From assembly GCA_008632985.1 (NCBI GenBank), contig QPGO01000020.1, positions 186,001 to 250,000 on the forward strand: a DNA stretch of 64,000 nucleotides, given 5' to 3'. This document shows positions 9,805 to 56,021 of this stretch, in pieces. The DNA is from Psammoneis japonica. Taxonomy: Eukaryota. Every line of letters begins with the position of its first letter. Positions within the stretch are counted from its first letter, which is position 1. Made by a program: the position numbers and the translations under genes. Below the pieces are notes generated by a model. That model was not told the origin of the DNA, did no database searches, and saw only the letters and a program-made list of their open reading frames with translations.

Positions 9805-12469
9805 GGCACGAATTTGATTCCGACTGTTCTTTTTAGCGAAAGTTTCGATCTGGCAACGGTCTTTGTTGTCACAGTGCAGTAATATGCTGGCGATTTATGC
9901 TCTCCACTAGTCTTGGGTAGTTCCTCCCAGCGATGTAATCACGCGGCAGCAACCTGCTTTCTCATGGTTTTTCGCGACTGGGTGTTCCCGCAAGGAGCAG
10001 GAACAAGGCACAAAGGCACGTTGAGTTGTGCGTGACGGTTGCTAAGATGAATATATCCACGACTTAGAATAAAGATGAAATTTTCAACCACAACATATAA
10101 TTAAAAAAAATTTGGTATGGTTTGGATATCTCTCTATTTATCTAATAATACTTCTCCCGCCATTTTGCTCAACGGTCGCGTCGGTCTGTCTTTGCTCCAC
10201 CGCACCAAAAACGAGCGACGCAAGCCGCAAACACGACACTCTGACAACGAAACACACCGAACACAGTGGCGGGTCCTGCATGGGAACAACTCCAACATCG
10301 TGGAAATGAGTTTTTTCACGATTTTCTCTCACCCGCATGGCTGAAATCTGGCTTAAATCAGATTTTGTTATGACTGTCGTCATGCAGCAGGAGGAAAACG
10401 TTGGAATGCTCCATCCACAAAGCAAGACAGTGACGCCACCTCTTGCTTTTTGCTGGCAGCAACATGAGTGCAAGAAGCCAGCACACAAGGGGGGAAAACA
10501 GCATGCAATGACTTTGAACCAGCTTCATTTTGGGGCAAATTAGAAGCACAAGAGCATTGTTGGAAGCAGCAAGCTGTCACTCAAGTCATCTCCCGAGAGC
10601 CAGCAAAACAGCGCTTGCTCTTTTTCCTCTGCTGAGATTTCATTGGTCAAAACATCCACAGTGGGCCCATGTTGCTCTTTCCTCCAAAATTTTGCTCTGA
10701 ACTCACCCACAAATCTGCACCGGAAAAGCAGCGTGCCAGCGAGATGGCTGCAGCGGCATTTTTTGTGGCTGGCAAAGTCGGGCCACACACAAAAAAGGCA
10801 CTGAGAGAATGATGCCATGTTTGTGTCACAATCTCCAAACAATCAAGCCAAGCAATGAGCAGCTGCACAGCTGCAGCAATTTGTCTGCCCCACGCACATG
10901 TCCTGCATGGGGCTTGGTCATTGCATGGGTTCTTCTTTTCCCCTCATGCATCTTGAGCTTGGCTGCAAAGCAGAACGGTGCCATTGAAAACAAGTGCATG
11001 GAGCATCAAGCACAAGTTGAGTGGGGAGGCTGAGCTGGAGCTGCCATGTCTTGCACAGTCCATTTTCCAGTTGGCAAGTTTTCTTCTGCTCAGCTCACAT
11101 CACTCCGCCCACTCTGGAGTCTGTGTGTTGCTCTTTCTCATCACCCTGCTTGCCCCAGAGTTTGTGCAAAGAAGAGCAGTGTGTGCAGCAAAGTTGAGAG
11201 GTGCAAAAAAGCCAAGAGAGTGATTTGCTCATCACCTGTGATCAAGCTGACCAAGATCCTGCTCATTTGTCAGAACCACATTGCTGAGAACTTCATTTTG
11301 CTTTGTCATTTTTTGTGAGGCCCAAATGAGAACAATGACAAGCCATTCACATTTTGTGGCAGACTTGTGGCAAAGCAATGCAATTGCTGCTTGGCTGCAA
11401 GCTGCCCCAGACACCATCTCAAACACATGCAACAACATTTGCGGCCTCAGATCTTTCACTTCTTCTCTTTTTTGCCATGTTGAGCAGCCAGAGCTCAGCA
11501 CACACACTTGCGGAACAAAAGAGATCAGATGAAAAAGCCCATTTGTCAAAAAGAAGCCTCCTCTTTAAAGAGCAGTCTCTTTCTGCAACCCATGGATCAT
11601 TCCTCATGGCAAACAGTCTGTTGCAGCTGACATGTCACCCATGTGTTGGATCAAGACATTGTGGCTGTGCCAAGAAAAGAACTGCACACTGTTGAAACAG
11701 CAGTCAAATGGGCTGCAGACAGCGCCAGCTTCAGTTTGCCACAGTGAAAAGCACATGCAGCAAGTGCTTGACCATCTGAGCACACCACAAGACCATGTCT
11801 TTGTGAGTTGTGCCCACAGTCCTCAAGCTGTGCAGTGACTGAATGACCACTCAAGCACCACTTTGCATTGCTCTCATCAAGATTTCTTTGGCAAAACCAG
11901 ATGGGGTGGCTCTGTCAGAAGAACCAAAGTCCACCCACACACCAACAAGCACAGCTTTTTCTGCAGATCTGCAGCCAAAGTGGACAGGGCAAGATGACTG
12001 TGCATTTGTTGCTGAAGTGAAAAAAAGACAGCCACAAAAGAGCAAAAAATGGCACAGCTTGGGTGCAGCTGCACTCTTCTTGCAACAACTCAAGGCCCAA
12101 TGATGCAGCTCATGTGACCATGTCAGAAGCTTGGCTTGATGTGCCAACAAGAAGTCTCATGCATTTGGTGCGCAGCTTCTTTGGTGGCTGTGACAAGGAA
12201 ATGGCATCTCACAGGGACACAGAGCATGCAGTGTTGAACTTCCAACACAGACACAAGCTTGCTGAAAACATGTTTGGACAGAGAAGAGCAAGTGGCAGTC
12301 AGCAAAGAGCATTGCTCCATCAAAGCACCCCTTTTGATGTTGGCTCTGGATGCAAAGAGACAATGGGAGCAAGAAGAAGCAAGAGTGTTTCTTCAAGAGA
12401 TTTCCAGCTCAGGAGCACACATCTGCAGCAGGGATCTGAGCCAAGACAAAATCAACTGGACACTTCACT

Positions 12470-14012
12470 GAATGACTGTGTCTTGTTGTCCACAGCAGAC
12501 ACATTTGTTTGCAAATGAAGAGAGTGGAGACATGACATTGAATGCTTCAATGACCAACAATGTCAGATTTGTCAACCTCAGGGAGAAGGACATCCTCGTT
12601 GCTCTTGGGCTTTGCTTGGTCATTCATGACTGGCGAACCATCATGACTCAGCGACATCCATGTGATTGTTGCAAAATGTCTCATCAGCATCATCTTCATT
12701 GTGACCGCCTCTCCAATCAACTTGACAACAGTGCTTGCAGTCCACAAATGGCTGGGTGCAACAGGTGGAGAGTGCACAACATTGCACGGTTCATCATCAT
12801 CAGCAACACATTCTGTCTTGCACTTGTTGTCTTTGTGCTTTGTCATCCAATTCTTCATGAGCTGATCAAGTTGAAGATGTGGTTTGCCACCAATCCAAGG
12901 ACATTCACTGTTTGTCTGCAAAGACTTTGAGCAATGGCACAAATGGTTGAGCTGTTTTGTTGAACTCAGGGGAGACCACCGATTTGAAGATGATCCAGCA
13001 TGGGGTGAGGTTCTTGCATCCTTTTGATCCAGCATTCAAGGGTTGACTGCATGTGATGTGAAGGAAATTGCCAAGCACATGATTGCATCCAGGCCTGGCA
13101 ACACTGGACCAAAGGAAAGCAACATTCCAAGCAATGCAACCTGTGCTGCTGCCACTGATCTTGACAGGAATGCTGTCAATGATGGCATTTTTAAGAATGT
13201 GCTAGAGAGAACACACTCAAAAACTCTTCCACAGCCACCACCTCCAAGTTGCGCCATTGTCTTCAGAGCAAGCAACCTCAAGTGGAAAAAGCAGAACACA
13301 AGGTGTGAGCATGATGTGGATTTTCAAGATGAGCTGTCCAAGGACATTTTGTTTGCAGCCTGCCCAGATGCCCATGTCAAGCAAGGTGGCAATGAATCCA
13401 GACATGTGGGCCCACACTTCTCAAGCTCTGCCATGGCCGCCCTCCCTCTCATGACAAGATTTTGAGAAAAGCTGAAGGAAGGTGTTTCTTTGAAAGATTT
13501 GGGTTGATGAGGATTGATGGTTGCTGGGTGAGGTTGGCCTGCTGTGTTTCACAAGTTGAGCCCTCTGGCTGTCTTGAGGCATGAGAAGAAAGCAGGGGGG
13601 GTTTCATGTGGCTCCAAGGAGAGAGACATGCATTGTCAACTTTCCTGTTCATGCCGTGGGTTTCATTGACAAAAGAACTCCAAAAATCTGTCAGAGGATG
13701 CAGATGACCCAGTTCCCAGTTTTGTGCAACCACACAACAACTGTGCACAAGCTCCAGGGCAGGACAATTGAGAGCCTGGTTGTCAACAACTCAGACTGCA
13801 GAGACAACTGGGTTTTGTGTGGTGTTCTGTCTAGAGTGACAACAAGAAAGGGACTTTGTCTCAGAAAGAAGCTTGATGGCAAGAAAATGAAGGACATGTC
13901 ATTGGCACTGAATGAGTTCCTTGGTCACTTCAGGCACACAAGAGGGCTTCAAGAAGGCTCTCTGGCTGCTGCTGCTGCTGCTGCAAATGACTGTGCCAGG
14001 CACTGCAACTGA
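12470..14012 (+). mobile_element. Degenerate PIF1-family helicase, probably a Helitron-type relic
   Basis: Collinear frameshifted motifs: IVTAS...GATGGECTTLHG, ELRGDHRFEDDPAWGEVL, DRNAVNDGIF, QFPVLCNHTTTVHKLQGRTIESL and VLSRVTTRKGL. Confidence 0.72.
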
Positions 14013-16149
14013 AGAGTGCAATTGTTGGACATGGATTTTTAACACATCATGCAGTGGTCCTTGTCAGGTGCAGAAATGATGTGGTTGAGTTGTTTGTGCA
14101 CGATCCTCAGTTTGAAAGCAACCAAGTGATTGTTGGCACAAAAAGCACAAGATCCAAAAATTCATCTCTCAATGGAAAAGAAGTGATGCATCATGTTCGC
14201 CGATGCAGGCAAACAATTGAAAGACAAAAGTGACAGCCATTCAAACATTTGCAAACAATGACCTTGAAATGGAAAAATGGCCGATTGATTGGCCAGGAGT
14301 CAATGGCATCCCAGCCAGAAATGATTGATGCAACACGAAATTTGGCATTTTTTGTTGTTGTTGTCAGAGTGATTTTTGTGAAGTCCCAAAGCCTTCAAAA
14401 GTCATTGGATGCTTTTTGTGTGCAAAGACTGCTTGCAAATTTGACCATTTTGAAAGTGGTTGACCCCAAACCCCAGCTTCATCTCATCTGCCTGTCTCCG
14501 GCCACCCAGTTGGGGATCAGGGCAGGGGGGAAGACACAGATGAGTTTTGAAAGGTTTCTCACACAATGAGTGCAAGTGGTGCTTCTGCAATGTCTTGAGC
14601 TGTGCACATGGCCTTCAACATCTGGAAAACATTGTGGCTCTTGTTCAGACTTACCCTCTCTTGTTCAGAATTGTTTGTTCTTGACAAGTTGACAAGCCCT
14701 TGATGTTTGTCAACAAAGGGAGTTTAATTGTTGTTTCAACCTCCCAAGTGGGATTTAACAGTTGACACAAATGGGCCGCATTGTGCACACATTCTTGTCA
14801 GTTTTTCACATCGGCTCATTTTAACATCATTTTTGCATCCACCCACAATTGCACTGACCTTCCAAGCAGGAAACAACAGTTGACAAAACTTGTCACACTT
14901 GCGTTTGTTTCTGTCTCACTTGACAGCTGTGTGTTCACAACAACTTTCTGACATTGCTCGTTTCTGCCTGACAATGGTGATGTTCAACTGCGTTGTTAAC
15001 CTGATTGTGCATCGGCTGTGTGCTGCTCATCATCTGATTTGCAAATGTCCCATTTTGTCATTTCTACACTGCACACCAAACAATGCTCTCTTTTTCCCTT
15101 TCTTGTTTTTCTCCTGCGTTCCACTGGCTCCTGCTGTCCTTTGCAGTTCCCACACAATGGGTGTGATGTTTTGGTCCTTGTGCCCTCCCTTGCAACCACT
15201 CTCACTCTCTCCATGATTGTCTGCACCAGGCAACAACATTGCCCTGCAATGATCTGTTTTAAGTTCCTGTTGTGTGGCAGGCCAAAGCATCACCTGCAAC
15301 AAAAGAAAACTTTGTGCCAATGATCAGGTTTTGTGCATTTTTGTGTTTCTCACAATCTCATCTCATGTGCTGCTTCTGCTCACCTTTGCACCCTTTCCCA
15401 TTGCTGGTCTTCCATTGTTGCAGCTCAGGTCATGTGCCCAAATGTCTGTGTGCAAAAATGTGCACAAGTGTCAGTCATTTGCACTGCATGCCCGATCTCC
15501 ATGCACTCGCCACTTGTTTTTCTCACCTTGTGTCCTGCATTTTTTTCCATCCCATCCGCAATGATGCTGCTGCCTGTCCCCACAGCTTTCATTGTCAAGA
15601 CATTGGATGTCACTTGAGTTTGCTTTTTTTGTCTTGTGAGTGAGCAACAATTTGTGTTTTTGGCCAAAATGCAAGCCTGACCATCAGTTGATTCCTGTTG
15701 GCATCTCTTTTTCAGCAACAATTTTGTTCAAAAATTGATGATTTTGTTGCAACACAATGGTTTGAATGATTTGAAACTGCCTCAATGAATCATTCAGTTG
15801 TTGATGTCACACATGCATTCAATGACTTTGATTTCATCATGTTGGTGTGTTCTTGTTGAGATTGAAATTTTCACACTCATGCTGCACACTCCCAGCTCCG
15901 GGACCTCAATCAACACCTTTTTGATGTTTGGTGTGTTCAACAATTGCCGCTGCCACCAAGACAATTGCCTCTCTCCAGAAAGCTCAGAAACAGACCCTTC
16001 ATGCCAGTGAAATGACCAACTTTGGAGATGAATCTTGAAAAGAAAGTGCACAACTTAAAGGTGGGTCATGTGCTTCTGCTCTCTCTTGGTTTTCCGTCCA
16101 AACAAAAGACAGGGAACACCATGAATTTCCATTCACTGACTCCCTGCCC

Positions 16150-17530
16150 TGGTCATTGTTGGCTCCTCTGGGACACAATGGAGGCACTCAAGGCCATCCA
16201 AAGACAGCTGGGTGCTTGCACTGTCACATGGTGCAGAAAGCTCCCTTGTCTCTGCAGGTGAGGTGGCTGGGCCAAAGCAAGCCAATCACATCAGATGGAA
16301 AAGGGGCTGCATTGGTCCAAGACCAGGCTTTTCCTTCCCAGCCATTGTTGTTCTTGCCTCCTCAGGGACCCAATGAAGTCTCTTGTGACCATCCCAAGAC
16401 AACTGAGTGCTTGTGCTGTCACACAGACAGCTCCCTTGTCTTTCTTGCAAGTTGGTTCTTGGCTGGGCCAAACCCAGTCATGTCAGAGAGACACCAAGGT
16501 GCTGCACTGACACAAGACAAGGCCCTTGCTTCCTGGCCATCAGTGTTGTTGGCTTCTCTAGGATCCAATGAAATCACCAAAAGCCATCCCAAGACAACTG
16601 AGCACTTGCACTGTTGCACAGATGGTTCCCTCATCCTTCTTGCAAGGCGGTTCTTGGCTGGGCCAAACCCAGTCATGTCACAGAGACAAGGTGCTGCACT
16701 TGCAGAAGACAAGGCATTTGCTTCCCAGCCATTGTTGTTGTTGTAAAAAAGCCATCCTAAGACAATGGAGCACTTGCACTGTTGCACAGATGGTTTTCTT
16801 GTCCTTGCAAGTTGGCTGGCTGGGCCAAACCCAGTGATGTCAGAGAGACAAGGGGCTGCATTGACACAAGACAAGGTCTTTGCTTCCCAGCCATCAATGT
16901 CACTGCATTGTCTGGGACCCAATGGAGTCACCCAATGCCATCCCAAGACAATGGAGCAATTGTGCTGTCACACAGATGGTTTTCTTGTCTCTGCAGGTTG
17001 GCTGGATGGGCCAAAGTCAGCCACCATGTCAAAGAGACAAGGTGCTGCATTGATAAAAGACAAGGCATTTGCTTCCCAACCGTTGCTGTCATTGCATCCT
17101 CTGGGACCCAATGGAGTCATCCAATGCCATCCCAAGACAACAGAGCAATTGTGCTGTCACACAGACTTTCTTCTTGTCCTTGCATGTGGGGTGGCTGGGG
17201 GCCAAAGAACCCAGTTATGTCAAAGAGACAGGGTGCTGTGTTGACACAAGACAAGGCCTTTGCTTCCCAACCATTGTTGTCATTGCATCCTCTGGGACCC
17301 AATGGAGCAATCTAATGCCATCCCAAGACAACGGAGGAGCACTTGCACTGTCACACAGATTGTTTTCATGTCTTTGCAGGTGGGGTGGCTGGGCCAAAAA
17401 ACCCAGTCATGTCAAAGAGACAGGGTGCTGTGTTGACACAAGACAAGGCCTTTGCTCCCCAACCATGGTTGTTGACATGTCCCTTGCAACCCAGCAGAGT
17501 GCTCCAATGCAATCCCAACACAACTGCACA
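16150..17530. repeat. Tandem array of about seven diverged ~190-bp units
   Basis: ccatcccaagacaa...gctgggccaaacccagtcatgtca.agagaca...gacacaagacaaggc.tttgcttccca recurs near 16194, 16389, 16584, 16752, 16938, 17127 and 17318. Confidence 0.9.
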
Positions 17531-19241
17531 CCTCCTTTGCTGCATCTGTGGGCCTCATGCTTCCACACCTTGTGCAGCTGGGCATCTTCTTGTTTGTGAA
17601 GTGATCGTGCAACGGGGAAGCTGCTGCCCAAGACATGTCTTGCAACTTCCCAAATCAAGAGTGCAAAGACACCACAATTGAGCCAACACACTCAACAAAT
17701 GCAGACTGAGTGCATTTGGGGTGCATGTCATGAAGGCAGCAACTCAAACCAATGTGCATTTGAGGCAATGATGATGATCTGGCCAGGCATTTGGCAAATG
17801 TTTGCTGGGACATGGGGACACCACCACATTCTCCATTTTAGCTTCTCAAATGGAGTTGGCCTGTGTGCCATGCACCATCCACCCAGCAAGCCTGTTGCTC
17901 CAACTTGAGACACCAAGACATGTCATCAAGCTCAACATCAGAATGAACCCCTTGGAACTGAGGATTTGTGGCTGATGAACTCTGGCCATTGTCTTCATTT
18001 GCAGCAATGGTGACAGGGAAGAAGATGAAACAATCTTCCCAGTCTCTGTCATCTGGCAGTGGCTTTCTAAGCAGTGGAGCCATTGCTTGCTTCATGAGAC
18101 ACAAAGACCATGCCATGGCAAGTTTAAATCTAAGCTGCTCCTCTTCCTGCTGGTGTTCCCAGTGTTTCTCTTCCTGAAGCACTGGGGGTGTGCTTTCCAA
18201 AGTCATCATCAGGGTTGAGGCCAAAATGAACAAAGAAAGAAGAACACTGGAGATGACTTTGAAAATGTCTTTGGAGAGCATGCTTGTTGTTGTTGTCATT
18301 GTCACACATCCAACCAGGACAACAAAGCGGATTGTGACAGGGGCATGCCATTGTTGCTGTTGGTTGTTAGATCGGAGGATGAGTTGTGCAGTGTCCAGCA
18401 GGAAAAAAGGACAGGTGCAGCAGAGACAGAGTAAAGCAAAGGCAGAGAGCTGACAAAATGGAAGAAAAAGGAAACAAATGAAGCTGTTCTTGAGAGGTTT
18501 AAAATGAGCCACACAGGCAACTAAAACAAAGGCAGAGATCTGACAAATGGAGGGGGGGGGAATGAATGAAGCTGTTCTTGACAAGAGTTCAAAATGAGGA
18601 CAAAATGAGCAACACAGGCAACTTCACACAATGCTTTTGGGCCATGTCTGCATTGCCATTGCTGTGATTTTTGACAAAAATGCTCCTCACACCAATGAAA
18701 TCAATTCTTTTTCTTTCCCAAATGCAGACATGCACCGCAACTCAAGTCAACCATGGGATTGGTTGCAGCGGCAGCAACATTTGACACCAAGTGCAAAAAA
18801 CACCTGGAGAGCATGTTAAAATGTCATTGTGATTGTGAGGTGTGTGTCCCAAGAAAGGCATCTTCATTCAAAGCCTTTGATCATCATCTGAACTTTTCAC
18901 TCTCATCTTCTTTGTTTCTTCTGCATCGGACACTGCAGCAAATGTTTTGAAGGTCTAAAATGGAGTGCACTGTGCAGACACCCATGACTTGGATGGCACA
19001 TTCTAAAAAGATGACAGAGAAAGGCATGCACTCTTTCTTTGGTTTTGTTTTCCATGTCAAAAATGGAAGCAAGCGTGGCAATCCTTGCCTGTCACGATCA
19101 TCTGTGGCAATCAATTGCCTCAATGCCTCAATGTCTGTGTCAATCAATGCAAAAGTTTCAATCAATGGCTCAAATGTCACCCTCTGTGACTTAAGGAGAC
19201 TGTCCAGGGCAGTTGTCAGGTGTCAAAAATTTGTGCGAGTT

Positions 19242-19517
19242 TGACAGAAATTGAAGGCAAATGGCAAGAATTCAAACAACAACTCCTCACTGCTGTCTAA
19301 ACAGCAGATGAGTCTCCGCTCAGAGACCGTTGCAGGAGCCGAAAGACGTGTGAGTCGGTGTGATCGGGCTACTGTTGTTGTTCTTGTGAGCCTTGTGGCT
19401 CGAAAGCAAACTACATCGTGCGTGAACGCGCAGAACTAAAGCACACAAAACTGTGCGCGGTAAACTAAACAGCGCGCGACACTTCGCGCGCATCCAAATC
19501 CTGTTCAAATCCTGTCA
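19242..19517 (-). repeat. 3' LTR of the copia element
   Basis: tgacagaaa...aaatcctgtca; 266 of 276 positions match 26080-26355 in manual alignment. Confidence 0.97.
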
Positions 19518-22500
19518 CTCCCCAGTTTGCTTGAGGAGCCACAGAAACAGATTCGACTTCGGATGGAATGAAGTTCCAGAACATGAGGGGGCGGAGAAGG
19601 TCCCAGATTTGGGAGTGACCCCAATGCTTGCTGAGAATGTCAGCAGGGTTGCGGGAGCCTTCGATGAAGTGGAACTCAAGGTAACCAGAGGCAATTGCCT
19701 CACGCACACGGTGGAACGATAGTGCGGTGTGTCGCTTGTGTAACTTGGAGTGCGGGATGGTGGCACTGTCTACAACCGACTTGTTGTCACCGAACATGCA
19801 ACCAACATTGCGGATCGGGATGCCAAGGCAGCGCAGGGTGATGCGCAGGTCGATAATCTGCTCAACACAATTCCTTGCGGCAACAAATTCAGATCCACAG
19901 GTTGCAGTCTCCACGGTGGCTTGTTTCTTGGAGAACCAATCAGCCGGGAATTTGTTGAGGAAGTGGAGCATTCCCATGACAGAGCGTCCGGTGAGCATGC
20001 AATGGCACAAGTTTGCATCGACGCAGTGGGTGGCAGTGACGAACTTGCCAAGGGGCGGTGGAGCGTCCTTCGGGATCATCTCTTCTGCTTCACCATACAC
20101 GGAATGCATCCATTCATGGGCCGGAGCAGGGAGATCCGAACAGTCGGGCTCTTCCGTGCGAACGCGGAGAGCACCGTGTCGCATCTTGGAGAGGCACCCA
20201 CAGACGTGTTTGGCACGATCCAAGTGGCCTTGACGGGGCGCAGCTCGGAAGCTAGAGAGTGACATGACAGCCGTGGCAATGTCAATTCGACCAAGGGACA
20301 CTGCCCATTGGAGTGAACCAACAAGAGACTGGAACTTGTGAATGCCATCGGGTCCCAGCAGTTTGGAAGTGTCCAGTTCGGGGTGGTCACCCTTCTCTAG
20401 AGGTGACAGGGCGTTGGTGGCAGGTTTCTCCCCAAACAGTCGGGCGCAACTGTCGACCATGCGCTCGATGTACTTGCGCGGAGACAGGCACAAGGTTCCG
20501 TCGGGGTCCCGGGAAAAGTCGCAACCCAGATGGAACTCAATGGGTCCCGCACCCTTGAGCTTGAACTTGCACTTTTCCGTGAGAGTGTCGACGAAAGATT
20601 GAGGGTCCTTCATGGCAATGGCGAGGTCATCCACATAAACGGCAATGCATTCACAGTGGTCGCCGTTCCTGCGCATCCAAATGTCGGGTTCGGCGCGGCA
20701 GGGGAAGAAGCCTTCAGCTCGCAGGCAGTCGGCGAAGTGCTCGTGCCAGCGGAGACCGGAGCTGCGCAGTCCATGCAGTGCCTTGTGGATGACAAGGATG
20801 TGTCCTTCGAGTTTGCCAAATTCGGGTCCAGCTACAATGTAAAGCTTCTCCTTGGTGGTGGCTTCAAGGTGGGCATTGCCAATGTCGGTGGCCCATGTCT
20901 CCAGCTCGTTGAGTTCGGCCAGGAAAATCATCAGCCGAAGGCCACGGAGGGAGACTACTCCGGAGTAGACACTGTCGACAGGTACGTCCGTGAGGTGCCC
21001 GTCGGCTACGAGTCGTGCCTTGTGGCGACCGTCGTGTTTCACGTCGCACACCAGGTGCACTCGGATCTTCTTGTGTCCCGCAGGAGGAGTGGAAGACTTG
21101 AAGGGCCCGCAGTCATGGAAGACTTTGCATTCGTCGAGTTGGTCCATCTCGAGATTAGTTGCGTCTCCCCACTTGCGGTTGCCGTTGCGTTCGTCCAGTG
21201 ACATGGCGTGTTTGCAGTTCCGGGGAACTTCGTATCCGCACTTGTGGCGAGGTGCAGTGCGGAAGGAGCGAAGCTTGGCTTGGTTGGCCATGCGAAGTGG
21301 CTTCTTTTGGCGCCTCGCGACAGTGCGGAACCGCTTCCAGCCATCCGTGTCGAGGAGTCCGTTCTCTCGTGCATAGATGGCACAGGTGACGGGGTCGTCC
21401 TTGGCGATGATGGCAAGAGGCTCGGACGTGATCTCCCCACTTTCCCATTCAAGCATGATGTTGTAGCTTGAGCCTTTCCAGGTTGGGTCGTGAGGCTTCA
21501 GAGGTCCTTCGTGTGATGCGATGCGTCGAAATTTCCAAATGGTGGTGTCTTCGTCTTCTTGCTCAATGTGATTCATGATGTCATTGCAGGCAAGGACTTC
21601 CTCGTATTCGTCATTGTTGACAGAGCAGACGAACTTAGTGAGCTCGGGATTGCCGTTCACTTTCCATTCGTGGTCTTCGACGGCCTTGACGATGCGAGCT
21701 CTGTGGCGTTGTCCGTCCTCTTGTGGCTGCATGAGGAAGGTGCGTCCAATGATGTCTTGCGGATCGAAAACTGGCATCTTGGGTGTCCTGATCTCCCCAT
21801 CAGGAGAATCGACGGGGTTGTCGTCATGGCGAGATTTGATGATGGGTTCAGGTGGCTCCCCATCAGGAGGATCAAGACGCAGGTTTCGAACGGCAGGATC
21901 GGGGGCAGCGGAGCGAACGTTGGACCGGCAGAGGATCTTCTGAGTCTCGTCAGATAGGATCTTGAAGGTCATCTGGTGGCCGACGTGCTCAGCAATGCCA
22001 ACGAAGCGTCCACACAACTCACGGGATTCGGACGGCCAATCAGAGTCATCGAGGTGGAAGTGCACTGGTTCCCACCAGTGAAAGCGAAGCAATGGGCTGA
22101 TGTCCGGGGTGGATCCAGTGAGAGTCTCGAGGGGCGTGCGCCAGTGGAGACGTGGGGACGCTGTGTGGTTGAGCATGAAGCACACGTGCATGAGCGCCAG
22201 CAGCCATGTGTGGGCGGGCGAACCAAAACGGTCCATGACAGTGTTCGCCATGCGCTTCACGGTCTGGCATCGACGCTCGGCAAAGTTTTGGTGTTGCTGG
22301 TGAGGCTCACTTTGCCAGCTGGAGATGAAGAGGGCGCGTGGGATCCCGAGCACTTTGTTGCTGATCTCAACTTGAGCACGGTCGCTAATGAGTTTGGATG
22401 GGGCACCACGTTCACGGATCTGATCCTCGAGTGTGTTGACAAACTCTTTGTCCGTCTCAGTGCCGCAGACGTCAGTGACGGTAGACTCGGTGCCAACAAA

Positions 22501-25134
22501 CAGTTGGGCGCTGGTGCAACCAGAGTCGACGGCCGGGGTGTCGGCACAAACGGTGTCAGTGGCGATGGGCTCGTTGCGGCGGTGCACATTAAGGGCGGGG
22601 TTGGGTGATTTGCAGGCCTTGCGAAGGTGTGTACCGGCGGGCATGCGGGCGCACTGCGTGGTGCAGTCAAAAGTGCGACGGACCGCATCGGTGGGTGGGA
22701 AGCCAAAGTGAGGCCGAAGAGACTCGAAGGGGGGGTCCTTGGGCTGTGCAGTGCGCTCCGGAGGTGGAACGTCATCGCCCTGGGGGTCAATCGCATGTAG
22801 ATGACACTCGGAGAACACGTCGTCGTTCGGAATGAGGTGATCATCGAGGGCGGACGCGTGATCGGCAGACAAGGAAGCGGACAAGATGGTCTCGTTGACA
22901 ACGACACGGTGACGGCAGTTGCCGCATTCGTCAAATGGGTTGGCGGTGGGATCGTCCTGTGGGTCAGAGATCGCGTCGCACCACTGGTCGTCGTCAGTGA
23001 CAGAGTGATCGAGGACGGAAGGGTCCCATGTGTCATCACCGGTGAGGATGACATGGGGCAGGGTGTCCCATTCGGCGTCAGTGTAAGGTCGCATGGCAAC
23101 ATGAGGCAGGCCAGCCTTGATGTCAATGGGGATGACATAGCCATCAGGAGTGGCAATGCGTTGCAAGCCGTTGGGCACCTTGACAGAGCGATCGTTGACA
23201 TCCTGTTTGCACCATTCGAGCTGGCCACAGGAATGGATGGTCTTGCCCTTTCCCGTGCATGCGCACTGATGGAGGATGGCGATGACGGGACCACGCTGGG
23301 TCTCAATGACGGCACCAGCTGTGACAATGGGGATGTCCACCAATTGGTGATCGTCAATGCCCTGAACATCGACTTGGCGAGAGGTGCGTGCAATGACGCG
23401 AACGTCGTCGCCAGCAATGCCGCCGTTGGCCCCACGATCGACCAGAGCACCAGTGCGTGTGGAGCGATGAGCAGAGGCAGAGCAAATGACATTGTGGTTG
23501 TTGACGCGGCGGCAAGTGCGGCCATTGAGTTCCATGTCATCTGCAGAAGCTGGCGGGGCAGAGGAAGCGGCGGATGGCCCCGGTCAACTGGCATTGGGGG
23601 CTTGGTTAGGAGACAACAGACGTTGCAGATCACCGGGTGGCAGTGGCTTGCGCTTGGTGAGGTGCGCCAGGATGGGATCATCCGAAGTGGCGTCCACATG
23701 TGGGGCGGAGTCACCAGAGTCAGCAGGAGTCGTGTTGGACAAGTTGACATCACCGTCACTCCCAAGGCGTTGGTCGTGAAGGTTGGCCGCAACAGACTCA
23801 TGGCAGTTGCTGGCTCGCGGGTTGCGGGGAGGTGGACGAGAATGCTCAAGGATGATCGCCTTGGAGGAATCGGGCAACGAATCCCAGAGCCGTTGGTGGT
23901 CGGGAGGGAGACGTCTCCATTGGACACCGGTGAGGCTGGGACCGCGGGTGCAGGCAGCATTGGCTTGAAGGACGTCAACGTCGCTGTCAATGTCGTAGAA
24001 CACATCGTCGGACGGTTCCTCGGAGTGGACGTCGTGTGCGTGTGTGGCGCATCGGGGAGCTCGAGGTGTCGTCTTGGGTTGAAACGTGCTGTCGCACTGA
24101 GCTGCCGCGGAGAGGAGCAAGCCACAGTGTTGATCGCATGTGAGGCTCTTGCCACTCTGCGTGCGATGCTGATCAGCTTGGTTCTTGACAGCACGGAGTT
24201 CCTCGACAGGGTGCATGGCATTCTCGAGCATGACGCGCTTCTGTCCTTCAGAGAAGTGGTCACTGGCCGGGATGAGTGCCTCGCACTTGCGCAACTGATC
24301 TTGCCAATGAAGGATGAACCCGTGGGTCGGACCTTTCCAAGTGCCATCACCAAGACGTGCGGTGGTGAGGCACGTGAGCAGGGTGGAGGACTCGACAGAT
24401 GCGCGGGTGGAGGCAAGCGCGCACTCAGACAAGGAGCGGCAGACGGTCTGTGCGTCAGAAGACCCCACATTTTCGCGAATGAGAGCCTTGCCCTTGTCGG
24501 TGAGAAGGATGCGTTCGAAGACGGCAAACATGTGCTTTTGCTGTTCAGCAAAGAGCAGTTTGTCTTCGGGGCTGGTCGGTTTGTACGACGAGTCTAGAAT
24601 GCACTCGACGTCTTGGGCACGGGCTTGTGCCACAAGTGAGGTGTGCCAAGTGTGCCACTGCTTGTCGGATTTGAGAGCCGTGAAAGCGGTGGGATCACGC
24701 TTGATGCCTCGCTTGAAGTCTCGCACCAGGTCGCGTGCCTTGGTCGGGTTGGTGACATGTGGAGGTGCAAGGGGTGAGCTGCCGATGGACACAGAAGACA
24801 TGCAGTCGGGGCTGAGGCGGTGGGCAAGGAACTCGTCATGCGCGAACAAAGAGGAGTCGTTGGCAACGTCAAGACCTTTGTGTGCTTTGACAATGCACAG
24901 ACTAACCAGTGCTGCCAACATGTTCTTGTAACCACGGGGCAAAGGGATTGCATCAGTGCCGTTGTCATGCTCAAGCGAGTCGATTTGGGACGGCATGAAC
25001 GTGAACAGTTCCTGATGCGAGTCCGTGCCGTCTTGGGCCAAAGCCAAACGAAGAGGACTCCCAGCACCTTGGGCAAGCACGGTTCCAACAACATGCTCGA
25101 AACCATCGGTTTGTTGCTGACGAGTGAGAACCAT
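19465..25134 (-). pseudogene. Copia gag-pol polyprotein, single frame interrupted by one TGA (23586-23584) and riddled with Tyr->Cys/His changes
   Basis: ORFs 23584-25164 and 19465-23535 are in the same frame. Protease LVDRGANGG, integrase IATDT...ISDRAQ...QNFAER, RT KARLVA / DIGNA / AVYVDD, RNase H FSKKQATVETA.GSEF and NPADILSK. Confidence 0.93.
19518..19530 (-). promoter_or_regulatory. Polypurine tract
   Basis: Minus strand GCAAACTGGGGAG lies directly before the TGACAGG start of the 3' LTR. Confidence 0.7.
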
Positions 25135-26064
25135 GGCAGACAAAAGTGGTGTCAGGACAATCAATTCTGGTTGGGAAGCGAAGGCAGACTCGAAACTTGG
25201 GTGAGAACAGACTTGACTTGAAACAGACTTGACTTGAAATCTTGAACTATCTTAAAATCAGAAGTCGCCGGGCTTTGTCACCCCGTTCGTTGTTGAGTGC
25301 TAAACTTCCCATCCGGTCCGCAGAGTTGTGCCGGCACGTCCGAACCCGCAGCCAGCGGCGCTTTGGGTTGCTTGCGAGCGGAGCAGTGGGTTGCAAACCC
25401 CTGCAGGTGAGCTGACTGGAGGTGGACAAGACCCCCGAACCGTTCTTTTTTTACATCAGTTGGATTTCCCGATCAGGCTGGCCAGTTGATGCAGGCGTCA
25501 GGCACTGTGGACGAACGAACAAATGCGGGAAAGCACCCTCGCCCCAACGCAGGCTGCAATCACGGCCACTTGCTCTCACAGTCGTCCTCGTGGACCTAGT
25601 GGAACTGTAGAGCACCAGTAGTCCGGGGTAGATCAGGTGCAATGGACTCGGTGTGCTTGTAGAGTGGCAGCAAAACCGTAGTCCGAAGAGTGGATAAAGG
25701 TTCTTGGCCGTGAAGATATGTATATATATATGTGTATATGTCTTCAGCGACTAAGATCCTTGAATGTGTAGGGTTCTTGACCGTTAACCGAGGAATAGGT
25801 ATATCAAGGGATGTTGATCAAGGATAGACTTGGATATGACCGTTGAATATAAGTCTTCAGCGACCAAAGGTAGTATAATCAATCCAGATATCCAGCGGTA
25901 AGGAGACTTGACGGTGACGTTAACTTCCTGCCGATGCCCTGGTATTGAATGCGCGTAGACTTGCCGATGTATGTAGAATATATACGGAGGTCCACGTAGA
26001 ATTGAAATAGCGTCGTTGGTAAATCAACGACGACGATGGCGGTTGCTCAATGGGTTGACAATGA

Positions 26065-26079
26065 GCAAGACTGTTAATC
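26065..26079 (-). promoter_or_regulatory. Putative primer-binding site complementary to a tRNA-Asn(GTT) anticodon arm
   Basis: The plus strand next to the 5' LTR reads GCAAGA-CTGTTAA-TC, the pattern of an anticodon stem with a CT-GTT-AA loop; no TGG (CCA-complement) follows the LTR. Confidence 0.55.
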
Positions 26080-26355
26080 TGACAGAAAATGAAGGCAAAT
26101 GGCAAGAATTCAAACAATAACTCCTTACTGCTGTCTAAATAGCAGATGAGTCTCCGCTCAGAGACCGTTACAGGAGCCGAAAGACGTGTGAGTCGGTATA
26201 ATCGGGCTACTGTTGTTATTCTTGTGAGCCTTGTGGCTCGAAAGCAAACTACATCGCGCGTGAACGCGCGGAACTAAAGCACACAAAACTGTGCGCGGTA
26301 AACTAAACAGCGCGCGACACTTCGCGCGCATCCAAATCCTGTTCAAATCCTGTCA
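26080..26355 (-). repeat. 5' LTR of the copia element
   Basis: Direct repeat of 19242-19517, followed by the TSD GAGTT. Confidence 0.97.
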
Positions 26356-29300
26356 GAGTTCCTGAGGAGCCGCGAGCAGTTGGACATCGGATCCTGTGAA
26401 CATGCCAGCTCCAACCAAATTGATTCAGAGCATGGCTTGCATTGTTCATGTTGTCTGCAAAGAGGTGTTTTCAAGTGGTCAACACTTCCAAGATCAGGAT
26501 CAAACTGCAGAAAATGCTGCCAGTGACAATTGAATGACAACAGCTGGCCAGAGCCCTTCTGTTGGACACCCATTTTCATTGTTTTGCATGCACGGAATGA
26601 TGCGCAATTTGTCAGCTGTCAACAATGTGGGTTGAACACTGTGCAGCATTCCAGGAAGCATCTGCTGCACAGAAGGACATTGAACATGAGCAACAGCAAG
26701 AACCAACAAAGACAATCAGCGCCATTTTTAAACCTGAAAGGTGGGTTTGATCCAGGACTTGGTGAGTGTGCAGGCAGCTCTCTCTGCCAGGCTCCAAGCA
26801 CTGGAAATCATCGCTGCAATGATGAGAACGGCTTTGTCAAAGAGCAGTGTCATAAAGTGCTGTGTCTCAAGAGTCTTGTCAACTGACGCATTGTGCAAAG
26901 CTTGCTTGAGTGCCTTTCAGAAACATGTCGCCAAGCTCACTTCCCTTCACCACAACAGATTGAACCAGCAGACTGCAGCACACAGAGAAAACACTCATGT
27001 GAGCCACACAGGCAACAACTTGAACAAAGGCAGAGATCCGACAAATGCTGGAAGGAAAAAACAAATGAAAGTGTTCCTGACAAGTGTTTAAAATGTGGAC
27101 AGAATGAGCCACACAGGCGACTTAAATTGAGCAAAAAAGATTCATTTCTGCTAAAAAACAAAATTGGCAATTGTGTGTGTTGAAGATCTGTGGATGCAAG
27201 CAGCACGCATGTGAACAATTTCAATCATTGACAAGTTGCACTCTCTTGTCAAGTGCAGAAACTTGTTGTGGACAAATCAAGTGCAAGTCAAAATGTCAAG
27301 AACAAGCAGTTGATCCAGATGAGCAAACTTTCAAGAGTTGTGCAGAGCCTCAGTCTGTGATGGCTCTCTGCCCTTTGCAGCTGGAGCTGCCCAGCTGGGC
27401 TGGCAAAAACTCTGAACAGATTTGTCAGTGCTGCTGGCAGGCACTTGGTTGCCTTCTGAGACAGCTCTGCCAGAACTTCTTGTGGCACACGCACACACCT
27501 CTGGGGGCTGAAAGGCACCCACTGCTGGTCTGAGAGAGCAGGTCTTCTTGTGAAGTGTTGCAAGGCATGCATGTTGACGGAGCTCTGGCAACCTCCATTG
27601 GAGAGATGTGCCACCCAAGTGGCAGCTGTGGTGGGCTTTGTTTGCACAATCTGGTCACTGCTTGCACCTGCCACCTCTGTCATGACTCTGCAGCAAAACA
27701 GTGCAGGAACAGAGTGCGTGTGTCTGCTCTCTTCACACAACTTTGGCTTTGCTCAAAGTGCGCACATTTGCAGTCAGAGCACCCTCCTTGTCATTGCACT
27801 GTTTCTGTGCACATGTGTCACACTTGAGAACAAGCTGACTGTGATGAAAAATCTGCTCAAATCTGAGCCACATTGCCCCTGCCTTCTCCTCAACTTGAAA
27901 CTTGAGCCATCACCCAAGCACAACCTGTGCACTGCTTTGCCCCAGCTCCTCCTCCAATCCTGCACTTTTGTGCGCACACTTCTTTCCACCAAACTGACCC
28001 AACAAAGGACAAAGATGATGGTGCATTGGTGTGCTGGGTGTGTGCAGCAACATGAGGAGAGTGCAGCAGAGCATGACACTTGTTTGAGCAGGGGGGCAAT
28101 GGAGCACCATCAAATGAAGCATCTGTGCAGCTGGAGGAAAGCTCTCTGTCATCTCCACTCCCTTGTTTGCACTCTTAACATCATCTTGCCACCTCCTCCT
28201 CCTCCTCCTCCTCCTCAGAGGTTTTGGCTTTGTTGCTCAGTCAGCTTGAGCCATTGGGAACTCATGGGCTCTTGTGCTGTGCTCTTGTGCTTCAACATCT
28301 TGCCCCACTGTGACCTCCTCTTCTCCCCCAAACACAATGTGGTGCTCCCCTCATCATCTGAGCTGAGCTCCCTTTTCTTCACCTCAGCATCTCCCAAGTT
28401 GTTGAGCTGCTGTCATTGTGAACATTTGTGCATCATTTGCAATTTTTGAATTGCTCGCTTCTTTGTGTGTGTGCCTCATTTTTGGCAGGCACCTGCTGCT
28501 GAGCTGCTGTCTCCAGAGAGATGACCCACTGCAGGCATTGCACAGGGGTGCCTCTGCATTGCCTCTGGGATTGTTGGCTTCAATGCTTTGCAGATCTCCT
28601 GCCCATGTGACAGTGCATGATGTGTTTTTGTTGACCACTCATTGTGTGACAACAAGAAATCAGCAAATGCCTGCCACAGACACACTCCTGAAGAACATTG
28701 CACATTTTTCATCTGCCCAAAGAACATTTCTGCATGACTTCCACATGCACCCATGGCTTCTGCACAGTTTTCAGTGCAAAAAATCACAACTTGGCACTCA
28801 CACATGATGATGGAAACCTTCCACCAAGCAGGAGCAAACACAGCACTTTTGTTCAAAAAGAAATTGCACAAGGCACACAAACCCAAGATCTGGAAAGAAT
28901 CTCTAAACATGTGGGCTTGTTGCCATCCCACAGGAAGCTGGTTGACAGGCGAGACAGTGAAGATTGCCTTGGCTCTTTCCTTGTTCTAAAAATGACAATT
29001 GAGTGCAAAGAGGCAAAACTGGCAAGACAGTCTTCACATTGACTTGAAACCACTCAAGGAGTGTGGAATTGGGGCAACAAAGTGGACAAGGGCCATGGTT
29101 CAGCAAAGCAGCAGTGGCATTGATGCTGATGGGAGCATTTGACAGAAAGTGCACAATTTCAAGAGATGCAGCCACTCTTGTGAAACAAAATGCCAAAACA
29201 ATCTGGCCTCTTGAACAGAGCTCAAGAAATGCAACAACCGGTGGTTTTGAGCTGCTGCTTTTGCCACTGATTTTCTGACAGTTGCTTGGGTTTGACAGCA

Positions 29301-31693
29301 ACACTCACAAACTGATCTGAGCACAAAAGCAAGGAGCCATCAGCATGACAGCAGCTTGTTGAGCTGTGATGGGGAGCAGACAGGAGAGGATCTGCAAGGT
29401 GCCAGTCAGATGATTCATGGACAGTTTTTCCAACGGCACTTGCCAGAGTCAAAGCCAGCAACAAACTGCAACATTGACAAAGCCTTTGTGCCCCTCTTTT
29501 GTTTCCACATGCATGGCAACAGCACCCAGAGCCATCCACAACACATGGACATTTTCAGTTGATTGCTGGCCTGCCAGCCCCAAACTAGACAGCAAGGTGC
29601 TGCACCTGGGCACCTTCAAAAGTTGCAGCTGCCTGTGTCTTGTCTGTTCACAAAAATGACAGAAAAGATGGAGCAACAACATGGGTGAGAAGAGTGAAAG
29701 TGTGCCCAAATCAACAAAACAGTCAATTGAGGGTCACATCTCCATGTGGTTGTGCACAGGCCATTCTGCCCAAAACATGTGAGTGACCCAAACACACCTT
29801 GAAGCCAACACAACAAACCTGGTGCCACACTGCTCACTGATCATGCTCCCATTTCAATGACACAAACCTGTCTCAGGGGTTAGAAGTGCAGAGCAAAGAA
29901 GACAAAGCAAATGAAACACTGCCAAATGACAACAACAACATCATCAGCACACAGCATGATGCCAGCTCAGCAGTCATTGATGTGTTTGTCCAGAGTCACT
30001 GCATCTGTTGTGAAACAATGAACACACATTTGACAGCAAAATGGAGACAACATTGTGGATGTCTCACCTGTTGCAAAGATGAGGTGACAACAGCAGAAGC
30101 AATGCAAAAGTGCCATGGCTGCTGCTGCAGCAATTTTGTGCAGAGCACAGTGCAAAAAATGGCGCCTTTGTGTCACACCACATTTTCCAGTTTTCATTCT
30201 TTGGGCAGGTTGGCTCAGTGTGTCAAATGTGTGATGATCCATGGGAGATTTTTTTCTCCCCCTTCTCACACAAATTGCAGAGCTGCTGAGAGGAGCACTG
30301 TCTTTCAATGACTTTGGCATCATTTTTGGGTCTGCTGCCATCACAGAACAGCTCATGTCTGCTGAAGAATTTTTCTTTTTTCTGACAATTTTTTGCACAC
30401 TCATGAATTGTCAGTTCTGCTGTCATTTTTCATGAGTGTGTCAGCAAATGTGTGTCCAGTTTTTTTCATTTTTCTGATGATTTTCATGTGCTCAAAATTG
30501 TCAGTTTTGTTTTCATCCATGCACGGGCATTGCCACACACACATCCCAAGCCTTTCATTTTTCCAGTGATTCTGATGGAGTTGAAAATGAAAAACAAATG
30601 CTGCAATGATGCAACAAGGAGGCAGTGATGACAAACCTTCTGCAGGCCCCACCTTCCTTGCTGCCTCCCCTTGCCAGCCCATGTTTTCTTTGCTCACTCT
30701 TCTGTGCCCACCTGGCCAACTGCCTGTCATCTTTCCAGCTCACCTTCTCTCTCTCTCTTCTGTAAGCTGCATGTCCTCACCACCACCCCCTGGACCTTCA
30801 CTCAATGCTCTCTGTGTCTGTGTGGTTGCCACACTGCCCTCTTGATCCTTTTGGCAACCATGCCTTTTTGTGCACCAAGATGCGCACAACAAAAGCCCCC
30901 TGTCCAGGCATGCAAGAGAGAGAGAGAGAGAGAGAGAGAGGCGCCATCTGAGCCCCCCCCCTTCTTGCATGTCTTCTTGCTCAAACCAACAGGCTTTTTC
31001 TCCCACTGCCCTTTGGGGCATCCTGCTGATGTTGGCACATGACATGTCCCCAGATCCACCCCTCTTTGTGCCCCTTCTGCGCACCATTTTCTTGCCATTG
31101 CTGCTGCTGTGCCTTGACTCTTCTTCATCCTCTGTGTCTCATTTGCCTGCCCCAAAACGACCTCCTTGCCAATGCTCAAATCAGCTGTGCCCAGGAGGAC
31201 AAGCTCCTTGGGTGCGACACACCAGCCTCCTCACATGGCTCCTCCATCGTCATCGCCTCTTTCAGCCAAGCCAGCCCCCCCCCCCCCCCTCCCCTTTGCA
31301 GTTGACCACATTCTTGGGGGCATCGGGTGCCATTTTCATGTGTTCTCCCACTTGGGGCATCCAAAGTTTTCTCGCCTCCTCCACCTGGGCTGCTCCTCTC
31401 CTGTCCCCCTCCTGAACCTCCCTGGACTGACTCTTTTGACACCATTCTGGCTCTTCACGGCCCACCAAGCCTCCCTTTTCGCTTCTCGCTCCCCCCAGAT
31501 CTCCTCAGCCTCAATCTTGGTGTTGCCCTCTCTGATCATCTCTCTTCCCTCACATCTCGCCTCTGCCGCATGATGCAGCAAAGACGACTCCTTCCCCCCT
31601 TCTGTCCGCACTTCCCATGCCCGCTTCGCCGCGCCCGCTGCGCGATCACGCATGTTGGCTTGACATGGAGTTGAAAGTTGGAACACAGTATGG

Positions 31694-31880
31694 AAACGCC
31701 ATGAGCAGTCCAAGCAAAGAGGTTTTTCTCGCCCCGTTCAATCCAACCTGCGAGCACGCTCAGGACGTTGCCCTCGGCTTTCTAAAATTGACTGGCAAAG
31801 ACGTTTTGTTTGATTTGGGTTGTGGTGACGGTCGTTTACTTGTGAAAGCAATTAGGCAAAGCCCTGTTGGTCTACGTTAA
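31694..31880 (+). pseudogene. 3'-truncated duplicate of the methyltransferase gene at 40002
   Basis: 31694-31878 matches 39995-40179 with one mismatch (DLG versus DMG codon), then hits TAA at a junction. Confidence 0.92.
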
Positions 31881-39936: not shown

Positions 39937-40001
39937 CTTGTTGGCGGGCCATGTATGGAACATAAATAAACAGGAGTATATGTTTGAAACACCAAAACGC
40001 C

Positions 40002-40625
40002 ATGAGCAGTCCAAGCAAAGAGGTTTTTCTCGCCCCGTTCAATCCAACCTGCGAGCACGCTCAGGACGTTGCCCTCGGCTTTCTAAAATTGACTGGCAAA
40101 GACGTTTTGTTTGATATGGGTTGTGGTGACGGTCGTTTACTTGTGAAAGCAATTAGGCAAAGCCCTGTTGGTCTACGTTGCGTTGGAATTGAAATCGATC
40201 CGACGTTTGTCGAGCGTGCCAATCAAAGGGTTGCATCGCTCAAGCTGCCGACGCAAAACACTGAACCATCTCAACTGATCGACATTCGACACGGGGATGT
40301 TCTAGAAGAAATTTCGTTTGCGCCAGAACTATCGAAGCAAGAGAAAAGAGACGACATAACGTCACTAACCTTGTTGCAAGATGCGACTGCCGTGTTTTTG
40401 TACCTGCTCCCTGCAGGACTGCGAAAAGTTACTCCAGAATTGCAAGAAATAATGAATACAAGAAGTAGCATGAGAATTGTCAGCTACATGTTTGCCGTTC
40501 CGGGATGGAAACCTACAGCTGTCGACCGTTCCACAAAGGGTGGGTGTCCAGTGTACTTCTACTCTCGCACTGCCGACAGTCCTACTCCGCCGACGAAGGA
40601 CTCCCCTACCCCTACTAGCTCGTAA
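40002..40625 (+). CDS. Class I SAM-dependent methyltransferase (FAM173/ATPSCKMT-like protein-lysine methyltransferase family)
   Basis: LAPFNPT, FDMGCGDGR, VGIEIDP, AVFLYLLP and RIVSYMF motifs. Confidence 0.85.
   Translation: MSSPSKEVFLAPFNPTCEHAQDVALGFLKLTGKDVLFDMGCGDGRLLVKAIRQSPVGLRCVGIEIDPTFVERANQRVASLKLPTQNTEPSQLIDIRHGDVLEEISFAPELSKQEKRDDITSLTLLQDATAVFLYLLPAGLRKVTPELQEIMNTRSSMRIVSYMFAVPGWKPTAVDRSTKGGCPVYFYSRTADSPTPPTKDSPTPTSS

Positions 40626-54219: not shown

Positions 54220-56021
<1,802 letters not shown>

Follow-up and report, generated by a model that had tools for sequence, protein, structure and literature searches.

What has removed almost every TA dinucleotide from some 21 kb of DNA lying between ordinary genes of the diatom Psammoneis japonica? 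The question is raised by positions 10380-31600 of a stretch of 64,000 nucleotides (the whole of which we call the window; contig QPGO01000020.1 of assembly GCA_008632985.1, positions 186,001 to 250,000). An original prediction, made from the letters alone, had proposed that A:T is converted to G:C at TA on both strands of transposon-derived DNA. Our analysis leads us to the same view with high confidence, namely that a TpA-specific mutation process has acted in place on transposon-derived DNA. The explanation taken as a whole, in which TA is erased in place by a targeted deaminase serving genome defence, appears probable to us, if less firmly so than the mutation process itself.

Composition of the block and the reality of its bases

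The near-absence of TA is real and lies far beyond chance. In a dinucleotide count the range 10545-13190 contained a single TA, at 11566, where about 190 would be expected by arithmetic from the base frequencies; the earlier estimate of one TA against more than 100 expected therefore stands. Segments of 1 kb from 11001 to 18001 and from 27001 to 30001 contain 0-9 TA each, those of the flanks 25-67. The block is transposon-derived as had been stated, but it is not the single uniform unit that was described, since a younger Copia retrotransposon is nested at 19242-26355 and separates the left part (10380-19241) of an older hypermutated block from its right part (26356-31300). Because Copia was inserted between them with a perfect target site duplication (TSD), the two parts were formerly one contiguous block of about 13.8 kb. 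Jointly they retain 43 TA. Observed/expected (o/e) ratios on the left (block A, 10380-19300) are 0.05 for TA, 1.83 for CA, 1.81 for TG and 0.12 for CG, and on the right (block B, 26400-31300) 0.03, 1.74, 1.97 and 0.10, respectively. The three gene-bearing flanks show 0.56-0.62 for TA, 1.12-1.23 for CA and TG, and 0.99-1.03 for CG. Both the normal TA content of the flanking host genes and the richness of the block in TG and CA (o/e 1.7-2.0) had thus been correctly seen; the parallel loss of CG had been overlooked. The GC content of the old blocks (0.47-0.48) is the same as that of the flanks, and the o/e ratios of the four pyrimidine-purine steps sum to 3.8 in the blocks and 4.0 in the flanks. 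Near-equal sums are what a conversion of TA and CG into TG and CA by transitions alone would predict.

The left edge is abrupt, in agreement with the sharp edges reported before: the last TA lies at 10369, CG is dense up to 10434, and the losses of TA and of CG have a common border there. On the right side the two borders differ. A GC-rich stretch at 31301-31689, reaching the start of the next host gene, is without TA yet has normal CG, and an (AG)13 microsatellite (30915-30940) and a long C-run (31265-31285) are found close to the right end of the old block. The range 10380-31600 is moreover incomplete, as a further TA-poor region exists at about 46.0-50.5 kb. It is the interior (46000-50500) of an RVT_1-type retroelement on the minus strand at 45500-51500, with o/e ratios of 0.05-0.38 for TA and 0.5-0.96 for CG; at both ends of this element TA is at about 0.8.

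Such a composition might be an artefact of sequencing or assembly, if modified bases at TA and CG were miscalled by a long-read base-caller or if polishing corrupted repeats. This would fit the palindromic nature of TA and CG, which they share with methylation sites, the sharp borders of the domains and the lack of any recorded library type for the public runs. Polymerase-based platforms, however, read 5-methylcytosine as C and N6-methyladenine as A. Of the words sampled from block A, 68% are present in public run X1, and contigs built from its exact 31-mers (word depth 66-73, longest contig 315 kb) reproduce the sequence. One of 6516 nt crosses the left edge and differs from the window at one position in 3.8 kb (9000-12782), and another of 3768 nt spans 27170-28999 with no difference over 1.8 kb, which noisy long reads could not achieve. 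Because such contigs need accurate reads, a base-calling artefact, raised with the original prediction as a possible undoing of it, is very unlikely. Strand-symmetric miscalls at CG would also be expected to create TA, and TA is absent; the single-copy parts of the block are immune to errors of repeat polishing. An artefact is thereby already largely refuted and retains a very slight probability in our estimate. Runs X2 and X3 match only small parts of the region. The sole difference within 9000-12782 is at 12104, where the window has TG and the X1 contig CG. Either a polymorphism due to a CpG transition or a difference of assembly or polishing may lie behind it, and it is the one hint here of possible de novo change. 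Among 40 of 913 sites with another letter, 12 have TG or CA in the window against TA or CG elsewhere and 4 the reverse, a sample too selected to be used.

Direction of the changes, their timing and sequence context

TA and CG were formerly present in this DNA and were lost in place, as four independent lines of evidence demonstrate. One of them is the pair of long terminal repeats (LTRs) of the Copia-type retrotransposon, which lies on the minus strand at 19242-26355 (RVT_2 domain, E 2e-26) and is flanked at both LTR ends by an identical TSD of 5 bp (19237-19241 and 26356-26360). Its LTRs measure 276 bp, have TG...CA termini and are 96% alike. The 5′ LTR (26080-26355) is unmutated with 13 TA and 21 CG, and the 3′ LTR (19242-19517) is mutated with 6 TA and 19 CG. 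The element further comprises a gag-pol body with the RVT_2 domain (19465-25251), consisting of two open reading frames (ORFs) in one frame with a single TGA between them, and a 5′ untranslated region (UTR; 25252-26079), all on the minus strand. Among the ten differences between the LTRs, seven are a TA in the LTR at 26080 against TG (four) or CA (three) in that at 19242, two are CG against TG or CA in the same direction, and one is a transversion; all nine mutated states sit in the LTR at 19242. At integration, both LTRs of an element carry the same sequence. The changes are enriched at TpA, a point on which the proposal had been left to stand or fall, with 7/10 LTR differences at TA. The loss amounts to 7/13 versus 0/13 for TA (Fisher p = 0.005) and 2/21 versus 0/21 for CG, so that per site, by arithmetic on a log scale for this LTR pair, TA was lost about 8 times faster than CG. 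The Copia body (19500-25200) has o/e ratios of 0.14 for TA and 0.90 for CG at a GC content of 0.575. In the last approximately 0.9 kb of the element (about 25500-26355, 5′ UTR and 5′ LTR) TA is normal with o/e 0.6-1.2, the 5′ UTR showing 1.05-1.23 from about 25500 onwards.

The encoded proteins record the same direction of change. We compared the Copia protein with 120 homologs of 54-66% identity over 851 conserved columns. Conserved tyrosines were kept in only 9/48 cases, the lost ones being replaced by 24 TGY (Cys), 9 CAY (His), 5 Phe and 1 Trp codons (Y, pyrimidine), and every other residue type was kept at 77-100%, including Arg at 58/62. Of the 70 positions at which one homolog, P0271, has Tyr, 28 are Cys and 14 are His in the window copy. 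The RVT_1 element has kept 2/12 conserved Tyr (6 Cys, 1 His) and 22/24 conserved Arg. An in-frame TGA of Copia at 23584-23586 lies in a variable region and is uninformative.

The old block occupies the space between two host genes and contains two recognisable items. The first is the decayed 3′ remnant of a Helitron Rep/helicase gene with a PIF1-like helicase domain (12827-13964, plus strand), found with phmmer and tblastn. Its ORF matched 416 proteins at E<=0.001 in phmmer, and these map onto 12827-13964 in tblastn; the long homologs P0010 and P0065 bear Helitron_like_N plus PIF1 domains, and a PDB sequence search with the helicase ORF gave weak PIF1-like matches only (E 0.002-0.7). None of four conserved Tyr columns is kept in the remnant (2 Cys, 1 Phe, 1 Leu), and conserved Arg is read as TGA and CAC. 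The second item is a tandem array of seven units of about 190 nt at 16141-17524, the units being 71-77% alike. In their alignment TG and CA are both present in 15 of 183 dinucleotide columns, compared with 0-7 such columns for seven control double-transition pairs. Such columns are to be expected if an ancestral TA or CG was resolved independently in each unit. No credible Pfam match was obtained for the 106 of 116 old-block ORFs of at least 70 aa that were scanned; a Hemotin match fell below the curated cut-off and was dismissed. A minus-strand open frame abuts both sides of the Copia insertion (18887-19241 and 26356-26618), and ORF 18887-19222 scored at chance level (best score 0.81) against a protein atlas. 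Small contigs from run X2 are about 90% like these two segments, with CG or TA at sites that read CA or TG in the window. By eye, the X2 pieces have a loose end before 26564 and differ at 26421 and 26427 by CG or TA against CA or TG in the window. This suggests that a less mutated relative of the sequence occurs in the same sample.

It could be argued that the block never held TA or CG, being foreign DNA of such a composition or DNA shaped by selection, for example for avoidance of a nuclease or restriction enzyme. Suppression of both CpG and UpA by selection does occur in RNA viruses. Here, however, the LTRs of one insertion differ, three different transposon proteins show Tyr to Cys or His at invariant positions, TG and CA alternate among tandem units, and related Copia elements contain TA. 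The last point comes from the best 80 of 325 metagenome Copia relatives, which serve as a control rather than a survey, as one of the two search patterns used contains Tyr. Their pol regions have TA o/e ratios of 0.45-1.03 and GC contents of 0.41-0.54, each has 0-1 Cys and 0-3 His at the Tyr positions of P0271, and no hypermutation was found among these best 80 of 325. Ordinary TA in the relatives means that TA-poverty is not a family trait, which disposes of the reservation that active members of the family might be equally TA-poor. Intrinsic composition is already refuted by these tests of polarity, and the probability that we leave to it is practically negligible, the smallest of any explanation considered here.

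Both strands were struck. TG and CA are present in nearly equal numbers (976 and 1033 in block A, 551 and 585 in block B) and follow each other in random order (runs test, z = -0.83 in A and +0.21 in B). This balance and interleaving point to many separate events on both strands and not to strand-coordinated tracts. Together with the LTR pair and the Tyr to Cys or His changes they bear out the proposed A:T to G:C conversion at TA on both strands. They also bear on the idea that the retroelements were edited as RNA or cDNA prior to integration, in the manner of ADAR, ADAT or APOBEC enzymes, and arrived in mutated form. Such editing would account for the normal TA at the 5′ ends of both retroelements, as a gradient along reverse transcription could give, and for the excess of sense A>G (Tyr>Cys) over T>C (Tyr>His), which is 24:9 in Copia and 6:1 in the RVT_1 element; the very high depth of the Copia family also leaves room for inheritance of a mutated body. 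However, it does not agree with balanced and interleaved TG and CA, with LTRs of one insertion that differ by 7 TA and 2 CG with both TG and CA outcomes, or with tandem units that resolved the same sites differently. The old block furthermore holds a remnant of a Helitron, a DNA transposon, and converted stretches of single-copy depth. In the chlorarachniophyte Bigelowiella natans, comparable changes are reported to arise de novo in chromosomal DNA (10.64898/2026.01.13.699255). We consider editing before integration quite improbable.

The TA sites that survive give an indication of the wider context. In the old blocks 35/43 of them lie within TTAA, CTAA/TTAG or CTAG, as compared with 271/1530 in the flanks (Fisher p = 8e-19). 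Per kb, TAA falls from 8.5 in the flanks to 1.99 in the old blocks and TAG from 8.7 to 0.83, TAC from 12.5 to 0.18 and TAT from 10.6 to 0.11. The corresponding gains in the old blocks are +14.9 for TGC, +13.0 for TGT, +6.7 for TGA and +6.0 for TGG. Survivor contexts and gains together point to the A of 5′-TAY-3′ on either strand as the target, TAR sites (R, purine) being mostly converted via the opposite strand.

Targeting, the accompanying loss of CG and the mechanism

Within this one 64-kb window, three transposon-derived domains have TA o/e ratios of 0.03-0.23 against 0.56-0.62 in the gene-bearing flanks, and the neighbouring host genes are spared. The original prediction had called the process repeat-restricted. 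This part of it is not supported: 10334-12334 and 27676-28999 are at single-copy depth in run X1 (66-74) yet fully converted; 12335-19004 is present at about 4-45 times single-copy depth in that run. Hypermutation itself could push former copies below the likeness threshold of 85%.

The loss of CG to TG and CA is likewise limited to transposon DNA (o/e 0.10-0.12 in the old block against 1.0 in the flanks). We read it as a second, slower process, presumably ordinary deamination of 5-methylcytosine in methylated transposons. Three observations argue for this: Copia and the RVT_1 element lost most TA and little CG and the old block lost both, several metagenome Copia relatives have CG o/e ratios of 0.21-0.5 with ordinary TA, and diatom transposons are CpG-methylated by DNMT5a (PMC9998398). 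In the metagenome Copia loci L003, L042 and L018, CG is at 0.21-0.41, TG and CA at about 1.5 and TA mildly low at 0.47-0.49. CpG-only decay is common in such Copia elements and separable from the loss of TpA, for which CpG decay does not account. Fungal repeat-induced point mutation (RIP) and CpG decay had both been put aside beforehand as explanations, rightly so, as TpA is destroyed here and neither of them removes TA. In an alternative view, a single deaminase, guided by chromatin or homology and possibly ADAT2-like, would act on both A and C, erasing TA fast and CG slowly. The common left border of the old block allows such a dual system, as do the two CG changes that are confined to the LTR that lost its TAs. 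Against it stand the roughly 8-fold gap in rate, the common CpG-only decay in relatives and the fact that methylation of CpG in diatom transposons would by itself suffice as a cause. We regard this dual system as unlikely, and equally so its extension to an ancient "reverse RIP" found throughout the SAR (stramenopiles, alveolates and rhizarians) lineage and shared by diatoms and chlorarachniophytes; if true, transposons would be disabled without stop codons and at the same time driven GC-rich.

For the loss of TA we favour a locally targeted process that acts on the chromosome in place, within silenced mobile DNA. In this view it changes A:T to G:C at 5′-TA-3′ on either strand, such that each TA ends as TG or CA, with TAY sites going first, TAA persisting longest and the process continuing until TA is almost gone. 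Proteins are destroyed through Tyr to Cys or His without new stop codons, and the decay of CG to TG or CA trails behind at a slower pace in the same domains. The elements can be read as a time series in this sense: Copia and the RVT_1 element would represent a stage at which TA is lost and most CG kept, and the old block a stage at which both are lost. The chemistry might be conversion of A to hypoxanthine, which is read as G, by a TadA/ADAT2-like or other enzyme of the deaminase fold that is recruited to silenced chromatin, and its role might be genome defence. Adenine deamination is the most economical chemistry, since it yields the right transition and since deaminases typically read one or two neighbouring bases; on balance we hold it to be evenly poised between right and wrong.

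The footprint alone does not reveal the chemistry, and a sequence-specific error of replication or repair in silenced chromatin could take the place of a deaminase. Variants of this idea are a polymerase that misinserts C opposite T at TA, or mispairing of a modified A or T at TpA. The affected domains are those expected to be heterochromatic, and symmetric modification of the palindromic TA would naturally give equal damage on both strands. However, Pol eta acts at WA (W, A or T), yet AA is not depleted (o/e 1.21-1.23 in the blocks and 1.16-1.20 in the flanks), which makes the formerly suggested Pol-eta-type WA>WG synthesis unlikely. The extreme efficiency, with TAC and TAT down at about 1% of the flank level, also speaks against an error of this kind, and no polymerase is known to us to follow a strict T-A-pyrimidine rule. 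Errors of replication or repair, including both variants, hence appear unlikely to us, though less so than editing before integration.

Several points weigh against targeted erasure by a deaminase as set out above. The footprint is historical throughout and does not consist of de novo events. No deaminase-like gene was detected in the window by Pfam scans of the larger flank ORFs (13, then 71 of at least 90 aa, out of 117 flank ORFs listed, which include overlapping frames left out of the 71-ORF scan), as had already been noted from the sequence for candidate enzyme genes. Targeting does not follow element borders: Copia escaped it in its 5′ LTR and 5′ UTR, and the RVT_1 element at either end, for which open promoter chromatin, a dependence on homology in the flanks or guidance by small RNAs are possible reasons. 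That Cys outnumbers His by 24:9 can be put down just as well to the TAY context as to a strand bias, and the base before the Tyr codon, a purine in 6/9 versus 10/24 cases, gave no significant difference. The Copia family reaches a summed depth of about 70,000-130,000 in run X1 against 66 for unique sequence. The loss of TA in the Copia body may in part have been inherited from an already mutated parent that was mobilised in trans, and short-read polishing of such a repeat could distort the assembled copy. Certainty that changes arose after the insertion is confined to the LTR differences. Finally, run X1 may derive from the assembly's own sample, and its library type is among those not on record.

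Neighbouring features and relation to known systems

The spared host genes on both sides of the transposon-derived domains include a KIX-domain gene, PNO1, glycerol-3-phosphate dehydrogenase, a BTB/MATH gene, V-ATPase B and others. V-ATPase B (54220-55737, minus strand) shows 90-92% identity to diatom proteins (Conticribra, Cylindrotheca, Stephanocyclus) and 84-85% to those of other ochrophytes, with no identical match and with family-level matches only in the protein atlas; these identities place the window in a diatom. Two small ORFs resembling S-adenosylmethionine (SAM)-dependent methyltransferases are encoded on the plus strand of the right flank (39966-40622 and 31536-31877). One of them has weak Pfam Methyltransf matches (E about 4e-5); the other is without a Pfam match, and we take it to be of this type from a glycine-rich motif recognised by eye. 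Neither shows any link to the mutation process. The coding (minus) strand of the RVT_1 element is extremely pyrimidine-rich (64-77% purine on the plus strand), and Ser, Leu, Pro and Ala abound in its proteins. As four database homologs are also rich in Pro, Leu and Ala, this composition is a trait of the RVT_1 family.

The original prediction had known of no description of such a system in diatoms. In a bioRxiv preprint of 2026, Mettrop et al. report TpA-only hypermutation from mutation-accumulation lines of B. natans (10.64898/2026.01.13.699255). According to this preprint, 231 of 302 new mutations fell in two integrated viral regions and were almost exclusively A>G/T>C, all at TpA, at a rate of about 6e-7 per site per generation; the targets are integrated DNA of nucleocytoplasmic large DNA viruses (NCLDV) and virophages, and the authors put forward an ADAT2-like gene as a candidate for the enzyme, citing ADAT2 enzymes reported to act on DNA. 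Full-text literature searches yielded no description of TpA hypermutation in diatoms. The best-supported view is that the process in P. japonica belongs to the kind described from B. natans. In both, A>G/T>C occurs only at TpA with TpG or CpA as the outcome depending on the strand, the affected DNA is foreign or mobile and lies beside host sequence that mutates normally or is spared, and depletion of TpA with gain of CpA and TpG is the long-term footprint; TpA-depleted genes of B. natans are reported to be enriched for reverse transcriptase and DDE domains. B. natans, however, is a rhizarian and the present host a diatom, that is, a stramenopile. Its targets are giant-virus inserts, whereas those described here are a Copia element, an RVT_1 retroelement and a Helitron-bearing block. 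TA depletion is near saturation here (o/e 0.03-0.05), compared with a Rho of 0.45 given for the NCLDV region. The oldest parts of our block have lost CG as well, and the term CpG is absent from the main text of the preprint; a preference for a pyrimidine at +1 is seen here, and that main text, supplements and figures apart, gives no wider sequence context and makes no mention of diatoms.

Among better known systems, RIP in Neurospora and other fungi is similar in that it leaves permanent transitions in a dinucleotide context, within sharp domains of mobile DNA and with genes spared. RIP changes C to T mainly at CpA, thus creating TpA and lowering GC. Its products have been described in the same terms, with GC lowered and TpA made via C>T at CpA (PMC7296669). 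Unlike in RIP, TpA is destroyed here and GC is raised, the Copia body being at 0.575 against 0.41-0.54 in relatives. Methylation of diatom transposons by DNMT5a (PMC9998398) and subsequent decay resemble our case in the loss of CG to TG and CA limited to transposon DNA but cannot remove TA. APOBEC and ADAR enzymes also disable copies of retroelements, by transitions of the deaminase type that show a preference for certain neighbouring bases, and ADARs favour a U before the edited A (Discussion of 10.64898/2026.01.13.699255). They differ in acting on one strand, on RNA or cDNA and before integration, whereas both strands, differing LTRs and non-retroelement DNA are concerned here. TadA, ADAT2 and base editors derived from TadA share A-to-I chemistry and a 5′ pyrimidine. 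The natural target loop of TadA is U-A-C-G. An engineered variant, TadA-8e A48E, is described as editing A within a YAC context (PMC13109818). Natural targets of ADAT2 are tRNA anticodons, and activity on chromosomal double-stranded DNA in an alga would be hypothetical.

In public metagenome protein sets, the Helitron-helicase-like proteins P0112, P0105, P0061, P0015, P0043 and P0102 have no or almost no Tyr (for example, 734 aa with 0 Tyr) and mostly show Cys, His or Phe at the conserved Tyr columns of their relatives. A TpA-erasing footprint is probably present in other public assemblies as well, where it is annotated as protein. Mutated copies keep long ORFs and get predicted as proteins, and they can therefore mislead gene annotation and the dating of transposons.

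TpA-targeted A:T>G:C hypermutation is so far represented by a single preprint and a single organism. A saturated footprint on ordinary transposons in a diatom, which belongs to a different lineage of the supergroup, suggests that the process is widespread, and diatoms are a lineage of great ecological weight. The window offers young and old targets as a time series, an LTR pair as a clock and a rule of fast TAY and slow TAA conversion against which candidate enzymes can be held. An enzyme that deaminates chromosomal adenine according to the TAY rule would, if it exists, also be of interest to base-editing research.

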